Shown here: positions 981 to 60,597 of the stretch, piece after piece | Layout: each line of letters starts with the position of its first letter | Numbering within the stretch: position 1 is the first letter of the stretch | Program-made: the position numbers and the translations under genes | Notes under the pieces: generated by a model | The model's database searches: none | The model's input: the letters and a program-made list of their open reading frames with translations, nothing else | Told to the model about the DNA's origin: nothing | Assembly: GCA_951406725.2 (NCBI GenBank) | Contig: OX597819.1 | Span: 96,596,001-96,660,000 of the forward strand | DNA: 64,000 bases | Source: Octopus vulgaris | Lineage: Eukaryota | Direction: 5' to 3'

Positions 981-1549
981 TTTATTCTTTTCTACTCTAG
1001 GCAAAAATCCCCAAAATTTTGGGGGAGGGGGCCAGTCGATTAGATCGAGACCAGTACGTAACTGGTACTTAATTTATTGACTCCGAAAGGATGAAAAGTA
1101 AAATCGACCTCTGCGGAATTTGAACTCAGAACGTAAAGATATACGAAATACCTATATCATTACTGACCATAAGGAGCTACACACAGAGGGGACAAACAAG
1201 GACAGGCAAACGGATTAAGTCGATTATATCGACCCCAGTGCGTAACTGGTATTTATTTAATCGACCCCGAAAGGATGAAAGGCAAATTTGACCTCGGCGG
1301 AATTTGAACTCAGAACGTAACGACAGACGAAATACCTATCTCTTTACTACCCACAAGGGGCTAAACACAGAGAGGACAAACAAGGACAGACAAACGGATT
1401 AAGTCGATTACATCGACCCCAGTTCGTAACTGGTACTTTTTTAATCGACCCCGAAAGGATGAAAGGCAAAGTCGACCTCGGCGGAATTTGAACTCAGAAC
1501 GTAGCGGCAGACGAAATACTGCTAAGCATTTCGCCCGGCGTGCTAACGT
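981..1549 (-). mobile_element. Three head-to-tail family-1 SINE copies: 981-1152 (tail A), 1153-1336 (tail B), 1337-1549 (tail B)
   Basis: The core ATCGACCCCGAAAGGATGAAAGGCAAA...GGAATTTGAACTCAGAACGTA occurs three times. Both junctions read ACGAAATACC|TAT. Confidence 0.92.
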
Positions 1550-21001: not shown

Positions 21002-21009
21002 AATAATAT

Positions 21010-21202
21010 ACTTATCGCTATTTCGACTGCCGCTACATTCTGAGTTCAACTTCCGCCGAGGTCGACACTGTCTTTAATCCTTTCGGGGTCGATTAAATAA
21101 GTACCAGTTACGCACTAGGGTCGATATAATCGACTTAATCCATTTGTCTGTCCTTGTTTGTCTCCTTTGTGTGTAGCTCCTTGTGGGCAGTAAAAAAATA
21201 AG
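21010..21202 (+). mobile_element. Family-1 SINE, tail B, head truncated
   Basis: CTGAGTTCAACTTCCGCCGAGGTCGAC...TTTGTCTGTCCTTGTTTGTCTCCTTTGTGTGTAGCTCCTTGTGGGCAGTAAAAAAATA. Confidence 0.9.
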
Positions 21203-21576: not shown

Positions 21577-22125
21577 GATTTATTTATTTTTTTTTTCTCG
21601 TTTTTGGATTTGGTTTGTAAGATTTGTTATATGAGTTCGTGTGTTGAAGCATATTCTGTTGTGTCTGGGGAGAGTAATTTTCTTTTTGTGCCTTATAATG
21701 TAACACACTCAGCAGTAAAATTTCCTCTTATTTCTTATTTTTATTTTCCTAAAATTTTCGTTGCGTCTTGCAACCTTTTCAAGAGTCTTGACTCTGTCCT
21801 TTATTTACACAGCGTTCCTTTTTGTTTGTTTATGCGCATGTATGTGGATCAGTGTGTGTGCCTATGCATGTACGTATGTATGTGTGTATATATGTATTCA
21901 TGTATGTGTGTATGTATGTATGCATGTATGTGTTTGTATGTATATATATGTGTGTGCATCTGTATGTATCCTGTATATTCATGTGCTTGCATATCTGTGT
22001 TTGTGTATTTTCTATGTATGTGTGTGTGTGAGCATGTGTTTGTATATGTATGCACCTCTGTGTCCTTGTGTGTGCATGTCTGTGTGTGTGTATGTGTGTG
22101 TGCAAATATGTACCATGTTTGTATG

Positions 22126-22864
22126 CCCGCCGAAGAACCCTAAGGCTTCGAGAGGTGGGGGAGAGACTCCGGACAAAGCGGAAGAGCTACACTCTCCCGA
22201 AGTCAGGAAGAAAAGAAAGAAGAAGAACGGGTCATTGCAGGTGGGATATGATGTGCCGTCTGCATGTCCCGAAGTTGTGCCACCCTGGGTGGAAGAAACG
22301 ATCCCACCTTTAAAGATGATCAATTGATTATCTTTTTCTACAAGGGCGGGGAGGTGGAAAATAGTAGAAGAACATAAAGAGACAGTAGAAATACCCTTCA
22401 CACGGGATCCCGAATGGCCTCCGCAGATAGCTGTGGAGGTCATAAGGTTTCCCTTGTGGAAAAGGCTTAAAGGATTTGGGGAGGAGTGTCGCATATGGCC
22501 GGCTGGTCCTTACACGACTTACATGTCCTACATGAGTGAGGCATGGGAAATGGTTGGATACAGGAACTCAAGCGGCATTGAAGATAATGATGGATATATT
22601 GATGGATATATCGATGAGTAGGAGGTTAAAAAGCCTCGTTAGAGGGTTTGAAACATCATCCTATTGTATTATTTGTAGTGGTTTATAACCTCAATTGTGT
22701 GTTTAAAAAAAACATGTTAAGTAACAGATTTTAGTGCCTCCTTCTTGTAAGAGGTGTGAAACCTCATATTGATTCTTAAAAAAAGAAAATATGTTTTCGA
22801 GAAAAATCCAGTCGACGGGTGTTGGGTTTCGTCTCTCATTTATTCATTTTATTTCATTTTCATT
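22126..22864 (+). pseudogene. Orphan coding remnant of about 165 codons with one internal stop, plus a 3' UTR and (CATTT)-like tail; possible ORF1-only retroelement 3' end
   Basis: ORFs 21761-22327 (non-repetitive part) and 22433-22621 are in the same frame, and a single TGA at 22325 interrupts it. Confidence 0.5.
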
Positions 22865-23113
22865 AGGTAAGCAAGCTACTTTATTTCATATAATTTGCCA
22901 TTTAGGCATTTACAAAGAGGGGACAAACAAGGACAGACAAATATAAAGGGTGAAGTAGCTTAACACAGTTAAAATTTTCGAATGAAGTTATGGATAAGAT
23001 TATAAACAATGGATTTTACGAAGACAATGTTTAAAAATATTACTTAATGATCATGTCGAAGGACAGACACCCAGCCATCCGGGTAGAACCTTTACTTTTT
23101 GATCCGGTCACAC

Positions 23114-26100
23114 TTACCTGGAGCCAAACATACCCAGCTTGCATGCCGCAGGCTTCCATCTTTTCATAAACATATCTCGTGACAGACACCTCTTCTCCAG
23201 CCTGATTTTGCTACTGAGGTGGTAACTAAAAAAGTTAATCAACCCCTGGCCGGAGACAAAGATGCCTGTCACTATACCTTTCGTGCGCGTCTTCCATACT
23301 GTTTCTTTCAGTATGGCTACTACACAGAAAAAACAAGCCTCTCTTTCCCTGTTAAGGAAAGGAGGCGGCACAATCTCGATGATAGACTCAGCTGATAGCT
23401 GTACTCTTCCCATCATTGACAACAGTTGTTCGGCAAAAGCTATCAGTCCCGATAACTCCGGACACTCCACGAATGCGTGCAAGACGGTTTCCCTATCCTG
23501 CTCACATCGCGGGCATGTCGGCGAGACGGCACTTTCGTGCCTTGACAGCTTGTCGCGAACAGGTAAAGCCACACGGAAACACTGCCAGGCCAGGGATTTC
23601 TGGTAATTATCCAGGACCCCGGAACAGGTTGACCAACTGATTTTCATCGTAGCCCAGGGCTTCCCCTAAGGCGTCTTCTGACATAAGGTCCACTAACCCA
23701 CAATAAAAATCTGTGGTGGAACTCCTGTTGCCGGCGTTGCTCACCCGAGAGAGTAGCTGGAGCGTCTGACGGCACTCCAAATGCCATTCACCCAGTTTAG
23801 GTCTCCGCTTGATCCATGCACCGATGTCCATTAGGGATGTTAACTGGGGAAGGTAGAACCGGACGTGCGGTGACCACACTTACTCTCCATCCAGGTAAAG
23901 CCAGAGGTGCCTCAACCTTAACGCGAGTTTTCGCATCCTCAGCCAAGGCATCCCTAGCCCACCCTTTAGCGGTTTCTGGTAGCAGACAGAGCGCTTTACA
24001 AGTGGCTTTCCTCCTTTCCACAAAAAGCGGAAAAGGATTCTCTCCAACTTGTTCAGTCACAAATCGGGGCAAGGCACCACGGTCAGACGGTAGGTGATTA
24101 CTGATGTTATAAACATCTGCACAACCTCCGCTTTTCCTAGCAGGGATAACGCCCGCCCAGACCAGGTCTGGGTTAGAGCGGTCACCTTGCTGGCCACCTC
24201 ACTCCAATTTTTCTCTATCTGGAGGTCTGGACCAATCCAGACGCCGAGCAGCTTAACAGGACCTTCCGTCCAACGCCCCACGACGTTATTGGACATCGGC
24301 TTACCCCTCCAGGTGCCGAGTTGCAAACCGACCGACTTGTCCTTGTTAACCTTTGCTCCTGCTACCGCCTCGTAGCTTTTGATGACCTCTTCCACCACTG
24401 GAAGCTGGCCTTCGTCTGCCACGATGATGGAGGTGTCATCCGCATACGTCGTAGCTCCTCTTTCACACCATAGATCATGCGGCGCGCCCCCTAGTGCCTC
24501 CAACTTCCGCAGCAAAGGCTCAAGAGCCAATACATATAGGAGCGAAGACAGGTGACATCCCTGACGAACTGAACGCTCGATCCTGAACGGCTTCGAAAAG
24601 AAACCGTTCACCTTGACTACAGACTCGATGTCGCTATACAAAGCAGCGATCCAACCTCGAAAGGTCGGGCCTAGGCCAGCCTCTCCGAGGACCGCCGCCA
24701 AGTACCGATGGTCGACCCTATCAAATGCTTTAGACTGGTCTAAATGTACCAGTGCTCCCCCTGCGCCAGAAAGCTTCCCCACCCTCTCTAAGGAGTAGCG
24801 TATAAGGTGGAGATTATCGTGGATCGTTCTGCCAGGGATAGCGCACGTTTGCGCTTCCCCGACAAGTTTGTCCACTACCCGCGCCAACCATTTTGCTAGC
24901 ACCTATCTCGTCCCCTTTGCTCGGGTCCTTCCTGATCAACGTCACCACCACCCCCCCGGCTCGCAGACTTGGGAATTCTCCCATTCTGCTGCCAGTTTGC
25001 GTAGACGCTAGCCAGCAGGTGCGCGAACAAGTCTGGCATACTTTTATAAAATTCATAAAGCAGACCATCGAGACCCGGCGACTTCTCCCCGGGGCACTTG
25101 CCCAACACCTCAATTACTTCCTCGGCTGTGATTGGCCCTTCACAGCACTCAGCCTCTCGTGCCGAGAGACGCGGGCCACCAGACAGGAAGTCCCTAAGGG
25201 CCTCACCATGATCCAGCGTCCCGCACCTCCCGAACAACTCGGCGAAGTGCTTGTGAAGTGCCTCACACATCTCGTCCCGCTTCTTGACCGTGCATCCGTT
25301 TTCATCAACCCCAATTGTGGCATCGTTGCCGCGTTGTGTTTCTATCGTACGGGCCCATCCGGCAACATTAATTCCCTCACGACCCAATGCTCGTACTTTA
25401 GCCCGAACTCTACATCCCTCTTGTTTGGTTTTGAGGTGACGGTCTAATGCCGTTCTCGCCGCTAAAATGTGAGATGCAGAGCCCAACCTCAATGCCTCCT
25501 CTAAGTTCTTAACTAGTTGCCCTTCTATTCTAGCCCTATCTAGTCTTAGTGGTTTACTAAATCTAATGGACTCGAATCGAATGGCTCTTTTGAGGGCGAA
25601 CCACCATCGGTTATTAACCACGGCTCCGGTTAACGCCCTCTGCACTAACTCCTTAATCCGGCTACGGTATGCCTCGCGAGTCAAAATAGACTTGTTCAGC
25701 TTTCAGTAGCTGGTTCCTATCTTAAGTGTGCTATCTATGTCCAGTCTACATTTGACCATTCTATGGTCAGTATAGGGCACCTGGACGAGCTGTGGACAAC
25801 TAAAACTAGACTTATCTCTAGTTCTTATCACTATCCTGTCTAGATAAGACTTGAACCTTCCGTCGCCACTCATCCAGATCCACTCTGGGACGTTCGGATG
25901 GTCAAGTCTGTAACGATCTGCCAGCTGAAACCGCTTAAGCAGATCCACAAGACGTGAGTTTACTTTTCTATGGATCGAGCCAACGCTATCGATGTGTACG
26001 TCAACGATAGCATTAAAGTCCCCTAATACCACTAAAATCTTCGACCTCACGAGAAAGCCCTCTAGCCGCCGATAAAAATCAGTTTGGAAACCTCTAGCAC

Positions 26101-26439
26101 AAGGTGCATAGAGTCTGATCAACCTGAAGGCCTTACTGTTGTATATCAAATGAAGGACGACCAGCCCACCTTCTGGGTTCACATAGACTGTACTTGTCTG
26201 CAGAGCCAAGTCTTTACGGATCAGTACCACTACACTCCTCGCCCTCCGGTCTGGCCAGGAGACATGATTTTCTCGTAGCCATTCAGGAGAGGCGAGAAGG
26301 TTTGTAGGCTGTCCAGCTTGGTCTCTGTAGCAACCATCACGTGTATATCATGTGATCTGAGGTCGTCGAGGAAACAAGCCTGCTTCCACTTCGAACTCAG
26401 ACCACGCACATTTAAACAACCAAGGTTAAGAGAAGCCAT
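23114..26439 (-). pseudogene. LINE ORF2 (APE endonuclease, reverse transcriptase, zinc finger), broken into at least six pieces
   Basis: LNVRGL, ATETK, LGDFN, YLDRI and TDHR (APE); KSPGLDGL..EFYK, LDQSKAFDRVDH, SVRQGC.LS.LLY and YADD (RT); CPRC..DRETVLHAFVEC (zinc finger). Confidence 0.95.
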
Positions 26440-26456
26440 TACAAAGAGTAAAAGTT

Positions 26457-27899
26457 CTACTTACATTTCGTTGGAGAGGTTGGGGCCGACCTCACCACAC
26501 ATTTGTGGGCCCCTTCTTTCTCCTCCTTCTTCAGATAGTCCGGCAAGTTCCCGATACGCCGGATGGTTTCTGGGTGTCTGTCTTTTAATTGTTTGAACAC
26601 TATTTTCGCAATCCACGCACATCTTTCGTTTAGATCTTTGTGTTTGTCGTACAGTCTTGCTGTGTGATGCGGAACCACAATATCGTTTATATATTTGTTT
26701 CGCGTATCATATTTAATTAATATGAGTTCATTTTTTCGTCTTCTTTTTCTGGGCCAGTTGGGCGGGATTTTGTTTTTGGTGCCTGTGGTGTGTCTTTGTT
26801 TTTATTATTTTTTGTAGGGGATGTGGACGGGGATGATGCACGAGTTCTTTTACGAACAGTTGTAAATCCCTCCTCTGATACCTCCATGGTATCGTCTGGG
26901 GTAGCAATATTTTGTTCAGAAGGCGCCGCAGTTTTAAGGGGGTGGGAAGTTTTAATAATGTAGGGGTTTGTGTGTGCAAGGGCTGGGTTTTTTTGTCAGT
27001 TTGTTTTGGGGTTGGCACCGTAACAGCAGGAGTGGGACTTTTTGTTTTTGTAGGGGTAGGTGGGTTTGCAAGGGTAGGGATTTTTTATTATCTGAGGGGC
27101 CTGGTGTCTGCGGTTTCTTTTGCTTGTCTGGACAGTCTACACGAATGTGGCCCTTTTTGCCGCAGGCGTAACAGGTGGGTTTTCGGCCTTCGACCTGCAC
27201 CCTGAGGGCCACATTCTCGCCCATGAGCACCCTCTCAGGAAGGACCTGCAGGTCCTCTTGTGTTCCTTGAATTATTACATTAATGTCTCGCCCAAGCCAA
27301 TATTGAGGGGCAGAGCATGTTATCTGTAATATTTTAATTTTGTCCGTCCTTTTATATAACAGGGCGGCCACTACCTCTACAGGATCTACTTCAGGCGGTG
27401 CTTCTGCAATCCTGACCCGGGACGTCCTGCGTCCCCTATAGGTTGGCAGAAGTACCACCTCCTTGGTTTTTAGGGGATTCACAGAATGCCCGCGGGCCAC
27501 CTCTTCCCCCGAGAAGCGGACCTCCACAGTGCCATATGCCCGTCTCCTGGCGACGTACACAATGTCCTTCCAAATCGGGGACAGGCATTTCTCGATAATA
27601 TTCTTTTCAAAGTGTTTGAACCTTCTGCTTTGTGGACAGAAGATTTTAAACACTACGGTCAGCTTCTCGGTCTCTACGATACTGGCGGAGGGTGATATTT
27701 TAACATCACCACCCTCCTCTTTCATTCTTTTAAATAGCTCGACGAGCTGATTGACATTGATGTCAATGTTCTCGGTTGCCACTGCGGCTACCACCGAAAA
27801 TTTTTTACTACAATTATCAACATTGCTCTCCTCAAGAGCACTATTTTCGTGAATAATCTCAACAGACATTATTCTGTTGAAATTAGTAATAGACAACAC
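26457..27899 (-). pseudogene. LINE ORF1, gag-like nucleic-acid-binding protein, frameshifted in the C-terminal part
   Basis: 315-aa ORF with CYACGKKGHIRVDC (CX2CX4HX4C), then a P/T/K-rich linker and a C-terminal piece ending just before the ORF2 ATG. Confidence 0.9.
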
Positions 27900-28296
27900 A
27901 AAAAAAACAAGTATTGGTTTCCCACAAAACTGGGAAACCTATAAAAAGTTTTTCTTCCAAAGCAGTTCAATGAGTGGTAAAGAGCAGTTAAAAAATTAAG
28001 TTTAATTCCCACTCCCGGGGGAGGGGCACGAAAATAGTCTGGCAAGACTATATACAGTCACGTAGATGAAAAAAGCCACAATGGCTAACAGTTCAACAGT
28101 AACAAATTATCCAATTATTCCCCGGTAAAACCGGGGAACAAGACAGTTCAACAACGTTCAAAAACAAATTTTCAGTAGTAAAATTCAACAAGTTCCAGAT
28201 GGTACGAAGTAATATTAACAACACAGCAAAACTCTTACCGGGAAGAAAACGCGTCCAAACCGTAGTAAGGTAAGCAAAATCACTCTTCAGTCAGTG

Positions 28297-28330
28297 AGGT
28301 TAGCAAGCTACTTACCACACAGCCACTCGT
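28297..28330 (-). mobile_element. 5' head remnant of a family-2 SINE (LINE target site)
   Basis: GCTACTTACCACACAGCCACTC is identical to the head of the complete copy at about 49855-49876. Confidence 0.85.
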
Positions 28331-28335
28331 ACGAC

Positions 28336-28421
28336 TATTCTGACAATCTTTTTCTAAAAAGGAGAAACCGGTCAAATAAATAAATAAATATCTTTAAAAT
28401 TGCATTTTCAAACCTTCTTTC

Positions 28422-31632: not shown

Positions 31633-32005
31633 TTTTCTCTTTATACTTCAGCTTTGATTTCTGTTGTATTTCACTCAAGGACATCATTCCCAGCACGAAT
31701 ATCAGCGGGGACACACTGTCCCCCTGGAAGATACCTCTCTTGATTTTCCCCTCTCCTAATACTTACTTCTCCGCTGTCAATTCCGTTCTCCAGTATTTCA
31801 TGCTATTCCATATAATGCTTCTCATATTCTCTGCTACTCCATGCATTTCCATTGTTCTTATTATCCAGGAGTGTGGCACCATATCGTATGTTTTGCGATA
31901 GTCAACCCATGCTATGCTCAGGTTTGTATGTCTTCTCGTGCAGTTTCTGATAATTAGATTATCAATTAAGAACTGATCCTTCGTTTTTATCCTTATTCTT
32001 ATTAT
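31633..32005 (-). mobile_element. R4/Dong-type LINE RT fragment
   Basis: KDQFLID...NLSIAWVDYRKTYDMVPHSWI...IKRGIFQGDSVSPLIFVLGM. Confidence 0.9.
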
Positions 32006-32069
<64 letters not shown>

Positions 32070-32094
32070 ACATCATCAACATCATCATCATTTT

Positions 32095-32805
32095 CATTAG
32101 CATCTTCTTTCAATTCTGTTTCCATTTCTTGCCGAGTGTCTTCCTGGCACCTAGGGCAGAGAAACGCGCAGTATATATTGGTAGACCATTGAAATAAACA
32201 TACCAGATTGTTCATTTACAAGGTCATGTGATAGAGAAAAAGGAGAAGAAAGACAGAGAAGAAAAATAAAAAATAAAAAGTAAACGAATAAAATAAAGGG
32301 AGAAAAGGAAAGAAAATTCACATCGACGATGCTCTTCTGAATACGTGTGACATACCAGTTAGGACAATCTTTTACAATTCCTGCATGGGTGGTAAGCCAG
32401 GGATCATTCTTAAATAATTTTCAGTTCCTTTTTTGATCATTCCAAGTGCTCCTACAATCACTGGTATTATAACCGTCTTGAGATGCCACATCTTTTCGAT
32501 TTCGATTAGCAAGTCTTTATATTTTCTGAGCTTACCAAATTCTTTTGCCGAGATATTTTGGTCACAGGGTATGATCATGTCAATCAGTAAACAGACTTTA
32601 TTGTTTTGGTCTTTCACAAAAATATCTGATTTATTTGCTTTGATGGTCCGTTCTGTACATACTGGGAAGTCACAAAGAATAGCTACATTTTCTCCCTCGG
32701 TTACAGCCTCAGGGTGGTGCTTGTACCATTTGTCAGCAGTTTTGATTTTATAATGCCGACACATTATCCAATGTAGGCATTGGCCAACTCTGTCATGTCT
32801 TGGTT

Positions 32806-32806
<1 letters not shown>
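32095..32806 (-). mobile_element. R4/Dong-type LINE 3' end (RLE endonuclease plus 3' UTR)
   Basis: RHDRVGQCLHW...ILCDFPVCTERTIKANKSDI...LIDMIIP..KLRKYKDL..EIEKMW...IPVIVGALG. Ends at a (TGA)n tract. Confidence 0.9.
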
Positions 32807-32863
<57 letters not shown>

Positions 32864-49008: not shown

Positions 49009-49467
49009 CGTGTGCGTTTATATTGGTATGTATTTAAGAGAATCTCTGTCTGCGCATTTATGCATTGGTGCGTATTTATATATGTACGAATGTATGTATT
49101 TGTGTGTATTTGTGTATATTTGCGTGATTATATGCGCTTGAATATGTGTGAGTGTGTGTTTTCATATGTATAAATGTCAGTTTGCATGGCTACATGGTCA
49201 AGGTGATAGAACTTTAGTCAAGAGACCAACGTGAAAGACACCATGTGGTCGTTCGATCTCAGAGAAATAGAAGCTAAATGTCATTCAGATATCATACAGC
49301 CACCTTTAAGAGTGAAGGACACATTGTATATCGGTAATTCTACATGTTGAAGTGGTCGCAATTGGAACGGCTTTGATAATAGATATGCTGGATGAAACTT
49401 GACCTGATGTGAACGAACGATAATAAAACAATAGGCAAACTCCAATAGAGGCACAACAAGTGACTTA

Positions 49468-49878
49468 CTCTTTACTCTTTTACTCTTTTACTTGTTTCAG
49501 TCATTTGACTGCGGCCATGCTGGAGCACCGCCTTTAATCGAGCAACTCGACCCCGAGACTTATTCTTTTGTAAGCCCAGTACTTATTCTATCGGTCTCCT
49601 TTGCCGAACCGCTAAGTAACGGGGACACACCAGCATCGGTTGTCAAGCAATGCGAGGGTGGGGGGGAAACACAGACACACAAACACACACATGCATAGAT
49701 ATATATATATACATATATACGACGGGCTTCTTTTCAGTTTCTGTCTACCAAATCCACTCACAAGGCTTTGGTCGGCCCGAGGCTATAGTAGAAGACACTT
49801 GCCCAAGGTGCCACGCAGTGGGACTGAACCCGGAACCATGTGGTTGGTAAACAGGCTACTTACCACACAGCCACTCCT
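49468..49878 (-). mobile_element. tRNA-derived SINE family 2, full length (CORE-like central domain, internal microsatellite, (GTAAAAGA)n tail)
   Basis: Minus strand has A box TGGCTGTGTGG and B box GGTTCAGTCCC, then GGCACCTTGGGCAAGTGTCTTCTACT. The tail reads TTACTCTT x3 on the plus strand. Confidence 0.92.
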
Positions 49879-50466
49879 ATTCACTTCCTTTGTAAACTGT
49901 TAACGTTTCATGACCATTGACTAAATTTAGTTACACTCTGGAACGAGTGTATGAAACAGGTTCTTTTAGTGGAGAAACATGAACTGAGAAAGTAATTTTC
50001 ATTTCTTAGAACATAAAAAGGCGTACAGTAACTTAAATTAAAGGAGTGTTGAGGCTTGATGAAAAGCTGAGCATCACCACCTTGTCATTGGTTGCTGAAG
50101 ATTTGTGAATCGGGATTTCTTTAAAAAGTAAAATAAAAGATGATTTCGTTTCAGCTTACGATAAAGAAACTGAAGAAAATTGCAGAAAAGTCGTTATCTG
50201 GTTAAAGAAACCATTAAATGTGGCTTGGTTAAAGGCTGATCAGCACTCCAATCAAGAAGACTGCACCATGTCAGTGAATGCAGTCAAAAAGCAGAGTGAA
50301 TGGAATCAAATTGTGCCATTGTTGCTTCTTGTGACACCAATAAGCAATGTTGGTTTTATTGATAGAGATATTGTTAGGCTTGCATCTTATGGTGTATAGT
50401 ATTTTCCACTTTTCCAGGAAGATTTGTACGGTGTGAGGTAACTAAGCTGTCTGTGTCTGAACAGTT

Positions 50467-50525
50467 AAGGGTGAGAAAAGATGGTAACTCCTGTACGTTA
50501 AGGGTGAGAAAAGATAGTAACCCCT
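50467..50525. repeat. About 32-bp tandem duplication
   Basis: GTTAAGGGTGAGAAAAGATRGTAAC occurs twice. Confidence 0.85.
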
Positions 50526-52814
50526 TGTAGATATATTGGATATAAGGTTGTGGCGAATGAAGCCAAATAACACTCGATAAATATGAATTGTGCAAACTTA
50601 TTTGATCCTTAACTAAAACGGAGACACCACCAGAAACTTGTGAAGAACTAGAACAAATACGGCAAAGCATTTTTGTCCGATACCCTAAAACTTCGGTCAA
50701 ATTGCCACGTGTATTTAACGTAGATACGTGTGTGCCTGTGTGTGCGCGCGCGTTTGATATATATATATATGTCTTGTCTGCATGTGTCTGTCTTTTTTTG
50801 TGCGTGTGTGTGCATGTGTGTGTATGTGTGTGTGCGTGTGTATGTGTGTATGTGGTTTCGTATATTTGTTTGTGTGTTTTCGTATCTCTGCGCATTTTTC
50901 CAATATAGGTGCATATTTTCTAATCTCTGTCGTCCATTATGGAGAAAAGTTGTTTTCCTTGTTGATATATAAGATCAAAATTCATCTGTTTTAGAGAATT
51001 CTGAGGCTCAGCAATATACTGGAACTTTACTTAGATAAAAAAAAAAGTAGGCCTTTATATAACAGTACATCAGTCGACATATTTTAACAATATATTGCTT
51101 TCCTTAAAAATCTGGGGATACAGAAACAGAGAAACAAATTTTGAGCATTCGAATTATAAAGATTGATAATTCGAAGAGAATGAAATATTGTGTCTGTGTG
51201 ATTATTTCATCGTCTTAGATACATTATAGATAAATAACAATCCTAGAATACAAAGTGAAATGGTCACAAAACACCTTTTTATCATAAATCTAATGGATCA
51301 GATTTGATCTGAAGATAAATAAGAACATTCCTAATCCTCGAATTTTATGTGGCATTAAATAGCATTAAATGTTGTTGTTGTTGTTGTTGTTTGGTGGTAG
51401 TGGTGGGGGTGTTATTGTTGTTGTTGTTGATTTTTATCCCTCATCTCATTGCTAGTCAGACAAAAGATACGTCATCTAAATCATAACGTATCGAGCAACA
51501 CATTGTGTGTCTTTCGTTTTTTTAAAAGCAGTGAAGAGTTATTTCAGGGAGAATTGTCTACTGTTTCTAACATGCCAAACTCTCCTCTTGGTCCGTATTC
51601 TCAAATATTTTCTACTTCGTCCAACAACACTTGTGTCGCTGTGTCCGATCTTCCACAACATCTTGTGTGTTCTCTGGGGTTTTTTTTTGGGGGGGGGGGG
51701 GTTAAAATTTTCATCAGACTCACCTACAGACTGTATTAGAACAACTACTAGTGACAACAGCCAGGACAGAGAATATTGTTAACACCTTTCATTCCTGATC
51801 ATCCTTCAGGACACAGACGTTATACATACACGCATAACACACTCGGCACCTCGCACCAAGTTTATTTACATAAACAGAGATCTGGAACACACGCTGTAGA
51901 AACATGACAACTTTCTGTCCTTGTAAATATGCTCTTCATACTCCTTTATGTATTTTGTTGCTTCGATATCCTATCTCCAGAACCTAGACACCACTATCAA
52001 TTACTAAATACTATAAACTAGCCTTCTTTCCTCACTTACTATATTTCTAGTAATACTTCCACATTACTGTGACAAGCCAAAATAAATCCATATTTTCACA
52101 ATGAATTTTAATAATTATGTCGAGTAATTATTCAGATAAGATGTAAGATTGTACTGCTGTGCAATCTTCTCCATTTTGTACAATATCATGTAGATACCTA
52201 AACTATTTATCGTGCAAGAAAGCAGTAAATTGCATTATACTAAAAGCAAGTTGTAATTCTAAGACTAACGGAAGTCTACTTGACACCATACCGGAAACTA
52301 TTGACTCTGACGTCATTTAACGTTGATTACCTTTTATCTTACTCTTCTCATTTTATTTATTCTACAAAGAGATACATGGCAGAAAATGTTAAATACTTGA
52401 ATTCATGTTTCATTCCTGCTTAGTGATCAGCAAACTACAACGAAACGATAAATATGGTTTATATTTATTAAAATAATGTATTTTGTGAAAATCAGTGAAA
52501 GTCTTTTAAACATAGGCGCCGGTTATTTCATTCCTAAGTACTTCTCATTTTGAGGTACCTGAGTCCCGTCAGTTTTTGACAAATTTTTAACGGACGAGAC
52601 CCAGCAAAGTCAAGATAACGACCCTTCGTTTGTTCCATAGAAAGTGCTTTAGGGCAAACAAAAAGAAAAGAAGGGTTTGAAGCATGTGATGTGATATCAC
52701 ACACAATTCTATGAGTGGAATCACACTTTTCCATATTGAAAGTTCTTGTAAGATGTCGCTTTTTGATAGCCTAAGCACACACGTAGACACAGAGATATGC
52801 AGAAATACAGAGAT

Positions 52815-53469
<655 letters not shown>

Positions 53470-54049
53470 TGTTCGTGTATATGTACATTTAAGTATGTGT
53501 ATTTAAGAATGTAAATTTTGTCTTTCACTCGAGTAGAAGTATAACGAAATGAAGTCGAGATTTTGCCGTTTCATGATTATCAGAAGTACTTTGAGATGGA
53601 TGGAGGTAGAGCTAATCCGCAACTATCTCTCTGATCGGTGTGAAAACTTGTGGAGAGATTTATGGCTCAAATTGATATCAGTTGAAATACTGTTTGAGTG
53701 GCGGAAATCAAAAGGACAGATATAGAATTTGGTTAGCATTTTGTGACAACCGTATATTAGAGTCGAGTGTCAATATGGACCAAAAATAATTGCCCAAAAC
53801 ATCAATGCTATTAATGTCCTGAATGTGTAATGTGTCAGTATGAACAACTATTGTGTTAAATATTCAAGGTTGCCAGAAAAAAACTAAGAATAGAGAAATA
53901 GATTTCCTGCTTTTATGTAAGTAACAGTAAGTTACGTATCTGTATGAATGTATATATATGATTGCCTGTGTGTTTGTGTATGAGGATGAAAACTGAGTGT
54001 GAAAATGTAATACCTTAACGGTTTAATGGCAATTGCTAATGAATATATC

Positions 54050-54282
54050 TATTTCTTTATTACCCACAAGGGGCTAAACACAGAGGGGACAAACAAGGAC
54101 AGACATAGGTATTAAATCGATTACATCGACCCCAGTGCGTAACTGGTACTTAATTTATTGACCCCGAAAGGATAAAAGGCCAAGTCGACCTCGGCGGAAT
54201 TTGAACTCATAACGTAACGGCAGACGAAATACTGCTAAGCATTTCGCCCGGCGTGCTAACGTTTCTGCAAGCTCGCCGCCTT
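54050..54282 (-). mobile_element. Family-1 SINE, tail B, full length, with 10-bp TSD
   Basis: TGAATATATC at 54040-54049 and 54283-54292. Complete head, core and tail ending GAAATA. Confidence 0.95.
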
Positions 54283-54299
54283 TGAATATATCGTGTATG

Positions 54300-55890
54300 T
54301 CCTGTTATAGCTTATTCAGTCATGCTTTGTATTTTTAATAAACATATTTTCTTTATCGGTCCGTGTTTGAGCTGTATTTTTGTCAGCAATGGTGGAGTAT
54401 GAAGAATTGATTATTTTCAGGATCTGTTTAAGTTTTTGTGTTCATTTAGTGGAATATGTCTGGCAATTAGGATCTCGCATTTGTTGAATCATGAATATTG
54501 ACCCCATTTCTCAAGGTAAATTCTAAGTGCCCGATTTAATCTTCGTGACAACCATTACATTTAAAAACATAAATGTGAAGTAATATTTTTACAGTGAAAA
54601 ATATATAAAATGTGTGTTCAATAAGATTGATACAGGTTCTGTAGTTAGGACGACCACATTTTTTTTACTACTAATGTTGTTTAAGAAATGGGTAATTTGG
54701 CGCCGGTAACTTTTTAATGGATTTTGGTTATTTTGTGTATTCTGAGCTGGTTTGCTTCAATAATGGAATGTTTTAATGGATAATGTTACTATATTTCTTG
54801 TGTGTTGTGTTGTAAGGAAAAGAATTGAGTGTATCTAAAGTGTTTTTGTCATTCGTAATTTTCGAATATCTGTTGTATTGGCACATTCTATAGTATTAGC
54901 ATTGTTGGGTACTGTCTTTCTAGTAATTTTTATTTTAAAACTTCTAGTCTTATTCCGAGTCTCAAAACTCGAAATAATGCTATTTATTTTTCGTACTAGA
55001 TTAAACAGTCTATTTGTTTTGGTACGTTTCGTGTGGCACAAGTGAATAATAAGTTCTGGGTTTCAATTGTTTGTGTCTATTTGTGTCCATTTTAATGATT
55101 AAAATAACGTAGAAGGACAGTTCCTTTTGATTGTATATCATTGTGAACTGTATATTGTTATGTCATGAATTAGGGTCTTGAAGTCAATGTGTTGGTCAAG
55201 ACCTCCACGGAAGGAGGTCGTTATCTAAGGTTCATTTCCAATTTTCTAAGACATATTTATGGAAGCTGGTACCGTATAGCTGCATATTGGAAAAAGTTAA
55301 GCGACTGTTGCTCCCTCCGCAGTTCCAATTATTTGTAAATGCTGCCACAGAAAAAGAAAAATTTGATTTTGTAGAATGAATTTTACTCCTTCAGTAATAA
55401 ATCTTGATTCTATGTGGTCTTGAATTTCATTGGGAAACTTTTTTCTGTCAGATTCTATTGCTTCCAGTCCATATGGGAACATAGTTTAAAGGTTTACTGT
55501 ATCAAATGACAATAATAGTCCTTTTGCTAACTTTTTTCGGGAAGGCAACTTAACAGGTCTAAATAATTTCTTATAAGACTTGGTATGTTTTGCAGAGTAG
55601 GTTGCAGCAATAAACCTACAAAATTGCTGAGTCTATGTTTCACAGTTTGGGCCCTTTATAATTGACCTTAATTTATGATCGTTAGTGTATGCTACGTTTA
55701 TACATGCTGAACTTGATTCTTTTCCGACGTTGTCAATTTTGCCGAGTCCATACAGACTGCTGGTTTTGCTTTCGAAGTTCGTTTGATAATCACATTTATT
55801 ACTCCTTAAATCTTTTTGGTGTCACTGAATGAAGGTGTTAAATTTTTCATTGTCTTTGATTCTTTGCAATTGTTCACCCTTTTATAAGAG
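54300..55890 (-). mobile_element. Decayed Penelope-like element, RT region
   Basis: SSLYGLGKI...LRSIIKGPNCET and YGLEAI...VKFILQNQIF..LQIIGTAEGATVA are PLE RT motifs, with many lesions. Confidence 0.75.
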
Positions 55891-57479: not shown

Positions 57480-57645
57480 AGTCCGGCTTTTACATTTCAT
57501 GTCCTGATACATTTCCTGCTGTGGCTGTGTAGTCCTATCCTGGACAAACACTCCCTCTGGCAGGTACCGCAATTGTAGCGAAGACTGTTCCTGGCTGGTT
57601 GTAATGTCATAGTTTCTTGTTGACGTCTTTTCTTGTCTTTCCATT

Positions 57646-57712
<67 letters not shown>

Positions 57713-57970
57713 ACTCCTTTGTATCCCCTCTTTTACGGTACGTCGCCAATCTCCACGGTTGCTGGCAACTGCTTCCCAATTGCTAATATTGATGTTGCAG
57801 GCCTTCATGTCCCTTTTGCAAACATCCTTGTAACGTAAGAACGGTCTTCCCACAGACCTAGTACCCCTAGCAAGCTCTCCGTAGAGTATGTCCTTGGTGA
57901 TTCTGCCATCTTTCATACGGATAACATGCCCAAGCCATCTCATACGTCTTTGTGTGAGGAGTGCAAACAT
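57480..57970 (-). mobile_element. RTE (BovB-like) LINE 3' end
   Basis: [50 protein letters not shown]...CGTCQRECLSRIGLHSHSRKC. Confidence 0.93.
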
Positions 57971-57981
57971 GTATATATATG

Positions 57982-58013
<32 letters not shown>

Positions 58014-58047
58014 TGTATGTATGTATGTATGTATGTATGTATGTATG

Positions 58048-58111
<64 letters not shown>

Positions 58112-60530: not shown

Positions 60531-60559
60531 TTTATATATGTGTATATATATTTATATAG

Positions 60560-60596
60560 ATTTCTTTATTAACCACCCAGGGCCGAACACAGAGGG

Positions 60597-60597
<1 letters not shown>
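60560..60597 (-). mobile_element. Isolated tail-B 3' terminus (extreme 5' truncation)
   Basis: ATTTCTTTATTAACCACCCAGGGCCGAACACAGAGGGG versus ATTTCTTTATTACCCACAAGGGGCTAAACACAGAGGGG at 54051. Confidence 0.75.

Follow-up and report, generated by a model that had tools for sequence, protein, structure and literature searches.

A common hairpin 3' end without poly(A) in a Tx1-type LINE radiation and a SINE of Octopus vulgaris, and the LINE families that probably copy the SINE

The LINE at the locus

The window, i.e., the whole stretch of 64,000 nucleotides of Octopus vulgaris DNA that was analysed, contains a full-length LINE of the family called fam1 here, flanked by target site duplications (TSDs) and by part of a second tRNA-type SINE family. 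The following features belong to this LINE and its target:

22882..28297, minus strand: full-length Tx1-type (L1-like) LINE, fam1; ORF2 is broken in this copy, which is 92% identical to the intact copy L080
26952..27869, minus strand: ORF1, with one CCHC zinc knuckle
23114..26439, minus strand: ORF2 (endonuclease, RT, zf-RVT), with frameshifts near 26235, 24930 and 23615 and internal stops
22953..22961, minus strand: 3' UTR segment complementary to the first 9 nt of the target, about 80 nt from the LINE end
22916..22939, minus strand: box, identical to the SINE copy at 54082-54105 (match search)
22896..22908, minus strand: LINE 3' hairpin with a 4-bp stem and a 5-nt loop, 14 nt to the end (alignment, RNAalifold)
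22866..22881, minus strand: 3' TSD, 16 bp, from the head of the second tRNA-type SINE
28298..28313, minus strand: 5' TSD, 16 bp, with one mismatch (15/16 identical)
28314..28337, minus strand: 5' part of the host SINE head; the same sequence precedes other full-length fam1 copies
49532..49861, minus strand: copy of the second SINE family (the fam1 target), part downstream of the site

The Pfam domains Exo_endo_phos, RVT_1 and zf-RVT scored above the cut-off in the pieces of the window ORF2 and in L080, one of the intact fam1 ORF2 copies present elsewhere in the genome, while zf-CCHC was found in ORF1 of fam1 and of the related family fam7. In the comparison with PDB, L1 ORF2p gave 230 bits over residues 6-870 vs 73 bits for R2, with none of CR1, L2 or RTE among the 15 matches. 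The two ORFs, with an N-terminal endonuclease of the APE type, RT and a C-terminal zinc domain in ORF2, mark fam1 as a member of the L1 clade in the broad sense, including Tx1.

The remainder of the host SINE copy was not found beside the 3' TSD at 22866-22881, its place being taken by the sequence 22100-22865 (plus), which contains a short lysine-rich reading frame and has no second copy in the fetched loci. Other LINE fragments of the window, at 31763-32863 and 57497-58111 (minus), are presumably R4/Dong-like and RTE-like, as judged by their translations, and a 45-nt 5'-truncated tail of a fam4-like LINE adjoins a (TA)n run at 60553-60597 (minus).

The common 3' end in the window

The other element with this end is a SINE family with one body and two tails, A and B, the copies of which in the window are the following:

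54050..54282, minus strand: full-length solo tail-B SINE, 233 nt, with the box at 54082-54105, the hairpin at 54062-54074 and 12 nt to the end; TSD of 10 bp at 54040-54049 and 54283-54292
1337..1549, minus strand: tail-B unit, its end abutting the own-head site
1153..1336, minus strand: second tail-B unit of the stack, 184 nt
985..1152, minus strand: host SINE remainder, same body with tail A; lower boundary approximate
21008..21200, plus strand: 5'-truncated tail-B SINE

The 24-nt identity of LINE and SINE claimed in the initial annotation was reproduced, 22916-22939 matching 54082-54105 without mismatch, as were the near-variants in the copies at 1153, 1337 and 21010, which lie at 1185-1208 and 1369-1392 with one mismatch each and, on the other strand, at 21145-21168 with two. 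These five matches in the window compare with 0.00 expected and with none in 100 shuffles. The distances from the box to the 3' end were measured as had been given, 34 nt in the LINE (end 22882) and 32 nt in the SINE (end 54050); both elements do terminate in the same hexamer without poly(A), and the small stem-loops described as differing in sequence proved to be hairpins of a 4-bp stem and a 5-nt loop in each. Between the box and the end, the window LINE is no nearer to the SINE than shuffled sequence reaches, the last 28 nt giving a score of 14 with a shuffle mean of 6.0 and maximum of 17. Two further features, beyond those annotated initially, are the position of the 16-bp TSD of the LINE in the head of the second SINE family and the stacking of the 1153 and 1337 copies in the head of their own family.

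The 3' end and the target of fam1

A fam1 copy used as a query without tail or flank yielded 1,146 first-look candidates, of which 40 were scored and 30 fetched. The same terminal base and the box were present in all 30 (in one with a short box deletion), and the target or its first bases followed directly after the end in all 30; the 3' flank continued into the host SINE body in 27, two copies keep only about 15 nt of the head, and one lies in a look-alike non-SINE site. Thus, the 3' end is a family feature, and fam1 is sequence-specific. A SINE scrap fused to one LINE copy, which was considered as the origin of the end, is rejected by these flank-free copies, and the end was found in the older subfamilies as well, those only about 80% alike keeping box, stem and target. 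In the larger set of fam1-lineage ends, 68 of 71 lie within 3 mismatches of the 16-nt site, some of these loci having been retrieved with a query that included 12 nt of flank, and the target is present in 144,072 exact genome copies. A trait of Tx1 elements, insertion at a specific sequence of a repeated target that leaves a TSD of about 15 bp, is seen in fam1 (16-bp TSD) and in fam7. Other LINE tails are also stacked at the SINE-head site of fam1 (L067, L271, L272, L287).

The related LINE families and ORF1-only elements

By protein and DNA searches, a radiation of related LINEs was found, with fam2 inserted in (ATT)n, fam3 in (CT)n or a short motif, fam4 in (ATCT)n and fam5 in (ATC)n, so that microsatellite targets recur (fam2, fam3b, fam4, fam5); further members are ORF1-only elements, fam7, fam8 and the very young fam9. 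Every family of the radiation ends in a short hairpin and an A-rich spacer, and a poly(A) run was seen in none of the ends displayed. All assignable non-SINE carriers of the tail are members of the L1-like/Tx1-type clade or its ORF1-only relatives, in agreement with the clade to which the tail had been assigned. The sample consists of about 2 Mb of search-chosen loci, in which a family with the exact tail B and the purine-purine-T-A site motif could be missed; the queries with fam1 ORF1 and two outside proteins brought up no families other than fam2 and the relatives of fam1, fam7 turned up by chance in flanking sequence, and fam9 was reached via the fam7 endonuclease.

The closest named protein found is from Argonauta. 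In the RT tree (41 rows, quick search), an Argonauta protein falls into the single clade of this genome's families, next to which stand elements of fish, newt and lancelet, and the subclade of fam1, fam3 and fam7/8/9 received an SH-aLRT of 99 in the same quick search. Named Tx1 or L1 references are absent from the tree, and the label "Tx1-type" therefore rests on anatomy and targeting. The entry BAD04856 is presumably a Tx1 element.

The ORF2 of fam7 is about 58% identical to that of fam1. At the 10-nt own-head site of the tail-B SINE, 28 of 30 fam7 copies were found with at most one mismatch and 29 with at most two, and in the full-length copies the SINE head is split, with one part on either side of the LINE and a TSD. 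The element ends 12 nt behind the stem in fam7 and in the SINE, and 14-15 nt behind it in fam1 (14 in the window copy); no fam1 end was seen at the own-head site of the SINE in the fetched loci.

Several peculiarities of the radiation were observed. Two different ORF1-only elements with tail-B-like ends are stacked at the second SINE-head site (L351:6618-8703 and L352; G000:C2:157.00-157.02 Mb), while other ORF1-only elements (L321-L350) carry a long perfect hairpin right after a splice-donor-like motif in their 3' part, with some of their tails fused to the middle of a fam1-type ORF1. In (ATT)n, fam2 forms head-to-tail arrays of about 5.87 kb period with many ORF2 open (L141-L200), and the small contigs C47 and C50 (G000) are largely such arrays. 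The arrays of fam9 (L421-L432) have a period of about 5.26 kb, its tail recurring also at about 1.78 kb, the latter period probably representing ORF1-only passengers. Two subfamilies of fam7 (L371-L420) have unlike 5' ends, and the head site that they use begins with G in one and with C in the other.

The landing sites and stacks of the tail-B SINE

In the assembly, which comprises 2.80 Gb in 227 contigs, an exact 18-nt pattern found 134,670 tail-B ends, the own-head site following directly in 34,318 of them, and the insertions at this site form stacks with a period of 184 nt, such as 1153-1549. At the fam1 site, no tail-B end was found by exact pattern genome-wide (0/134,670), nor in the fetched loci with offsets from -8 to +15 and 2 mismatches allowed (0/266). 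Among the loci that were not picked by SINE ends, the own-head site was used in 22 of 49, the second head site in 3 and other places in 24; about half of the SINE copies are outside SINE heads, which is looser than in fam7. The non-head sites keep a loose version of the head-site motif, the 109 of them in the whole sample having a purine at position 2 in 100, T at position 3 in 81 and A at position 4 in 87. Of 40 full-length solo SINEs, 19 carry TSDs of 9-19 bp and 21 gave none; the 40 controls gave a single match, of 6 bp. For the SINE heads in 49400-54400, a tRNA match was absent from the Rfam results, which consisted of microsatellite noise.

The stacks could alternatively be tandem duplications or multimeric master copies, and the site common with fam7 would then say nothing on the driver; we regard this as hardly credible. 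It would suit the period-184 arrays of up to four units, one of which, in L279, ends inside a unit, and the near identity (at most 1 difference) of adjacent B units in 6 of 40 pairs, but most adjacent units differ by many changes, TSD-flanked solo copies lie at sites whose sequence is like the start of the head site, and the base at which fam7 LINEs interrupt the head is the same. The upstream tail-B units are, moreover, less diverged than the non-B hosts behind them (9.0 vs 12.1 of 110, n=33, p=0.002), although in B-on-B pairs the upstream unit was not younger (n=40, p=0.20). Insertion explains most of the stacks, and duplication or the copying of multimers explains some. As a separate observation, one tail-B variant was at the second head site in 6 of 19 cases vs 0 of 99 for the commonest variant, which hints at several drivers.

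The LINE families compared with tail B

The majority sequence of 228 of the 266 SINE tails served as the tail-B reference. Over the last 28 nt, it was matched at 23-26 positions by fam9, 20-25 by the ORF1-only elements, 23 by fam8, 21-22 by fam7 and 17 by the window LINE, whereas over 60 nt fam1 (42-46; the window LINE 44) and fam3 (44-45) catch up through the box with fam9 (44-47), fam1 scoring as well as fam9 and better than fam7 (41-43), and one ORF1-only element reaches 51. The nearest hairpin is that of fam9, the 11 flanks of which, as far as seen, are not the head site; fam7 has the site of the SINE but differs in the box, the loop and the last base. Among the genome patterns, fam9-type stems numbered 345, and the pattern for such a stem joined to a SINE-type terminus gave only 9 matches, one of them with the SINE site motif, and fam9 was rejected on these grounds as the source of the SINE terminus. 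No LINE matching both tail B and the site exactly was present among the sampled families, a fam1-like 3' UTR continuing into a SINE-type tail gave no match, and the 30 fetched from the 513 pattern matches for LINE-like stems ending at the own-head site were all SINE variants. Tail B is, relative to the sampled families, a mosaic, which would fit its origin in an older member of the subclade or in one outside the sample.

The initial annotation had proposed this Tx1-type family, or a close relative, as the autonomous partner of the SINE. The first half of the proposal, in which fam1 or an older fam1 subfamily is itself the partner, is largely refuted and appears very improbable. It would account for the best upstream-box match to the SINE (24/24; 27/28) and for the common terminal hexamer, the older subfamilies score over 60 nt as high as any family, and intact ORF2 copies exist. 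Yet fam1 was rejected as the driver by the absence of SINE ends, both among the 134,670 and among the 266, from a site that fam1 uses almost always and that is present 144,072 times, and the reverse, a fam1 end at the SINE's site, is likewise missing from the fetched loci. Besides, the end register differs, the last 28 nt are near the shuffle level, and all older subfamilies seen keep the same target. At the median, divergence amounts to 6% in the SINE, 4.2% in fam7 and 0.4% in fam1, the figures for the LINEs coming from the 30 best matches and leaning young; the span is 3-11% for the SINE (10th-90th percentile) and 1.5-6.5% for fam7, the LINE samples again being best matches. The window family thus fails as the partner by its register (14 nt behind the stem vs 12), by the much younger age of its best-matching copies and by the unused site.

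The second half of the proposal fares better. The fam1/SINE pair has the 3' terminal sequence in common (24-nt identity, 44/60; the last 28 nt weak) and a different insertion signature, while in the fam7/SINE pair the site and the 12-nt spacer are the same, the stem-loop with compensatory changes being common to the clade and the SINE. The data favour a close relative as the putative partner, namely fam7 by site and register and fam9 by hairpin sequence, and point to fam7 or its close kin as the probable driver, perhaps several over time. The 24-nt identity of fam1 and the SINE most plausibly goes back to an ancestor, both having retained it, and is not to be taken as a sign of current partnership.

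Conservation of the hairpin and the polyadenylation-like hexamer

When 26 ends were aligned, the 4-bp stem proved to be paired in 91% of 104 cells vs 71% in shuffled data, although the 4-nt-loop families are misregistered in the alignment, and controls at slid positions were paired in 17-48%. Double changes in the stem numbered 19 vs 7.8 in the shuffles, none of 500 shuffles being as high, and as the rows are related, these are not independent events. The same four pairs were found unaided by RNAalifold, and the second pair of the stem is G-C in fam1 and C-G in the SINE and in fam7/8/9. The stem is short, about -4.5 kcal/mol, and it is kept by compensatory changes across the sampled families, the ORF1-only passengers and the SINE; the covariation anticipated initially for a structured 3' end was accordingly observed.

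In a non-stringent alternative, the end would be conserved as a signal for polyadenylation or processing, poly(A) or pairing with the flank would pick the RNA, and the SINE would have retained its captured tail by descent only. A canonical polyadenylation hexamer does lie about 12 nt before the end in most families, that of fam1 being completed across the junction with the target; a poly(A) on the RNA would be invisible in the DNA copies, and the crocodilian SINEU families driven by Tx1 have poly(A) and no common tail, according to the available text of PMC4494074. However, the polyadenylation-like hexamer behind the stem is altered in 115 of 154 SINE tails that retain the stem, which speaks against the hexamer being what is kept. 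The precise and uniform ends without A-runs, the compensatory stem changes across LINEs, ORF1-only elements and the SINE, and the keeping of the same structure by two kinds of non-autonomous element also make this alternative unlikely. We infer instead that the clade recognises its RNA by the structured 3' end, i.e., that it is stringent.

The antisense segment of fam1

When the 3' UTR was shuffled 5,000 times, a perfect antisense match to the target, such as that at 22953-22961, arose in 11 of the shuffles. If the segment is placed blind to the base under test, a target T faces A in 59 ends and a target A faces T in 5, with 1 other and 6 unplaced; the facing bases that switch together between subfamilies may represent one evolutionary event. 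In a SINE subfamily with a segment antisense to the site, the use of the head site was not raised (20/44 vs 119/222). A role of the segment in targeting is a possible lead.

Comparison with the known systems

The available portions of Ohshima 2012 (PMC3472496) name only three SINEs with L1-clade tails, from maize, sorghum and Chlamydomonas, the pairs being ZmSINE2/3 with LINE1-1_ZM and SINEX-3_CR with L1-1_CR (PMC3472496; PMC3747384, Table 1), and in Table 1 of PMC3747384 no animal SINE with an L1 or Tx1 tail is listed. The plant and algal pairs resemble the octopus case in the L1-clade LINE, the conserved 3' end of about 45 nt, the hairpin with compensatory changes and the tRNA-derived SINEs, and in both the stringency is inferred, as far as the available text of PMC3472496 goes. 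The octopus case differs from them in the animal Tx1-type clade, the sequence-specific targets and the SINE that holds the target of its carrier, and fam1, fam7 and the SINE are without poly(A) or a terminal repeat.

In crocodilians, SINEU was tied to Tx1-Mar by the common target (Kojima 2015, PMC4494074). As described in the accessible part of that paper, Tx1 families likewise target a mobile element there, the SINE is assigned by common target, tandem SINE insertions occur around the TSD, and the specificity is weaker in some SINE families. However, SINEU families have snRNA heads and poly(A), no LINE with the same 3' end is reported for them in that part, and the target of Tx1-Mar is Mariner, whereas the octopus target is a SINE and, for fam7, the putative passenger itself. 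The same text lists the site-specific Tx1L (target Tx1D), Keno (U2), and Kibi and Koshi (microsatellites), which are also site-specific LINEs of the APE type, with microsatellite targets recurring in octopus (PMC4494074). Unlike them, the octopus families have targets that include the heads of two tRNA-type SINE families, and no case of a LINE targeting tRNA-type SINE heads was found in the literature search.

For pairs of the UnaL2/UnaSINE type, the recognition has been demonstrated by experiment. A short 3' stem-loop common to LINE and SINE is a feature of both systems, whereas UnaL2/UnaSINE belong to another clade, carry terminal short repeats and are not known to have a sequence-specific target. 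HAL1, the half-L1 elements reportedly described by Bao and Jurka in 2010 as ORF1-only and non-autonomous, are comparable to the octopus ORF1-only elements L351, L352 and L370 with the hairpin tail, but some of the latter stack at a fixed SINE-head site and are without poly(A). UnaL2/UnaSINE and other stringent pairs of L2, CR1 and RTE are listed in the available Table 1 of PMC3747384.

The annotation of O. vulgaris recognises 13 recently active L1-Tx1 families, the word "target" being absent from its available text (PMC13282606), and the accessible parts of PMC4758252, PMC4824008, PMC5786205, PMC10294476 and PMC4889948 contain nothing on this LINE-SINE pair. No prior description was found in the literature search, though Repbase, Dfam, subscription papers or supplements may hold one.

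Proposed mechanism and significance

Target-primed reverse transcription is the established route of LINE insertion. We consider it probable that the tail-B SINE, with the poly(A)-less hairpin tail of a site-specific Tx1-type radiation, acquired this tail once by tail replacement and is copied by the sister families of the window LINE, which would read the folded 3' end and nick the own-head site. The endonuclease of each family would nick its own site, the ORF2 protein would bind the box and the hairpin, and reverse transcription would start at a fixed distance behind the stem, 12 nt or, in fam1, 14-15 nt, with no need for poly(A), the target-primed insertion leaving duplications of 9-19 bp. 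The SINE, its tail once swapped, would ride on whichever sister accepts the tail signal, and since the landing site is part of every SINE copy, the passenger would multiply the targets of its own carrier.

A bolder extension, which is tentative and on balance doubtful, would be that this animal Tx1 radiation chooses its RNA through a folded 3' signal free of poly(A) and its DNA site in part through the element's own RNA, as in the 9-nt antisense segment of fam1, with the tail-stealing SINE breeding the landing pads of its carrier. If true, the two would make up a naturally occurring LINE-SINE system that amplifies itself and is guided in part by RNA.

The initial reading was right in the clade, probably right in the principle and wrong in the family. 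The SINE that contains the target of its carrier would explain the stacked arrays that confuse repeat annotation, and the sisters with a common RNA signal and different DNA targets, i.e., two SINE heads and several microsatellites, would form a natural series for the study of endonuclease specificity. In textbooks, the L1-clade elements of animals stand for the "relaxed" LINEs, which recognise poly(A). Given a living animal clade of the Tx1 type that has intact copies, a hairpin that covaries, ORF1-only passengers and a SINE of more than 130,000 copies, ancestral stringency in the L1 clade would become testable.
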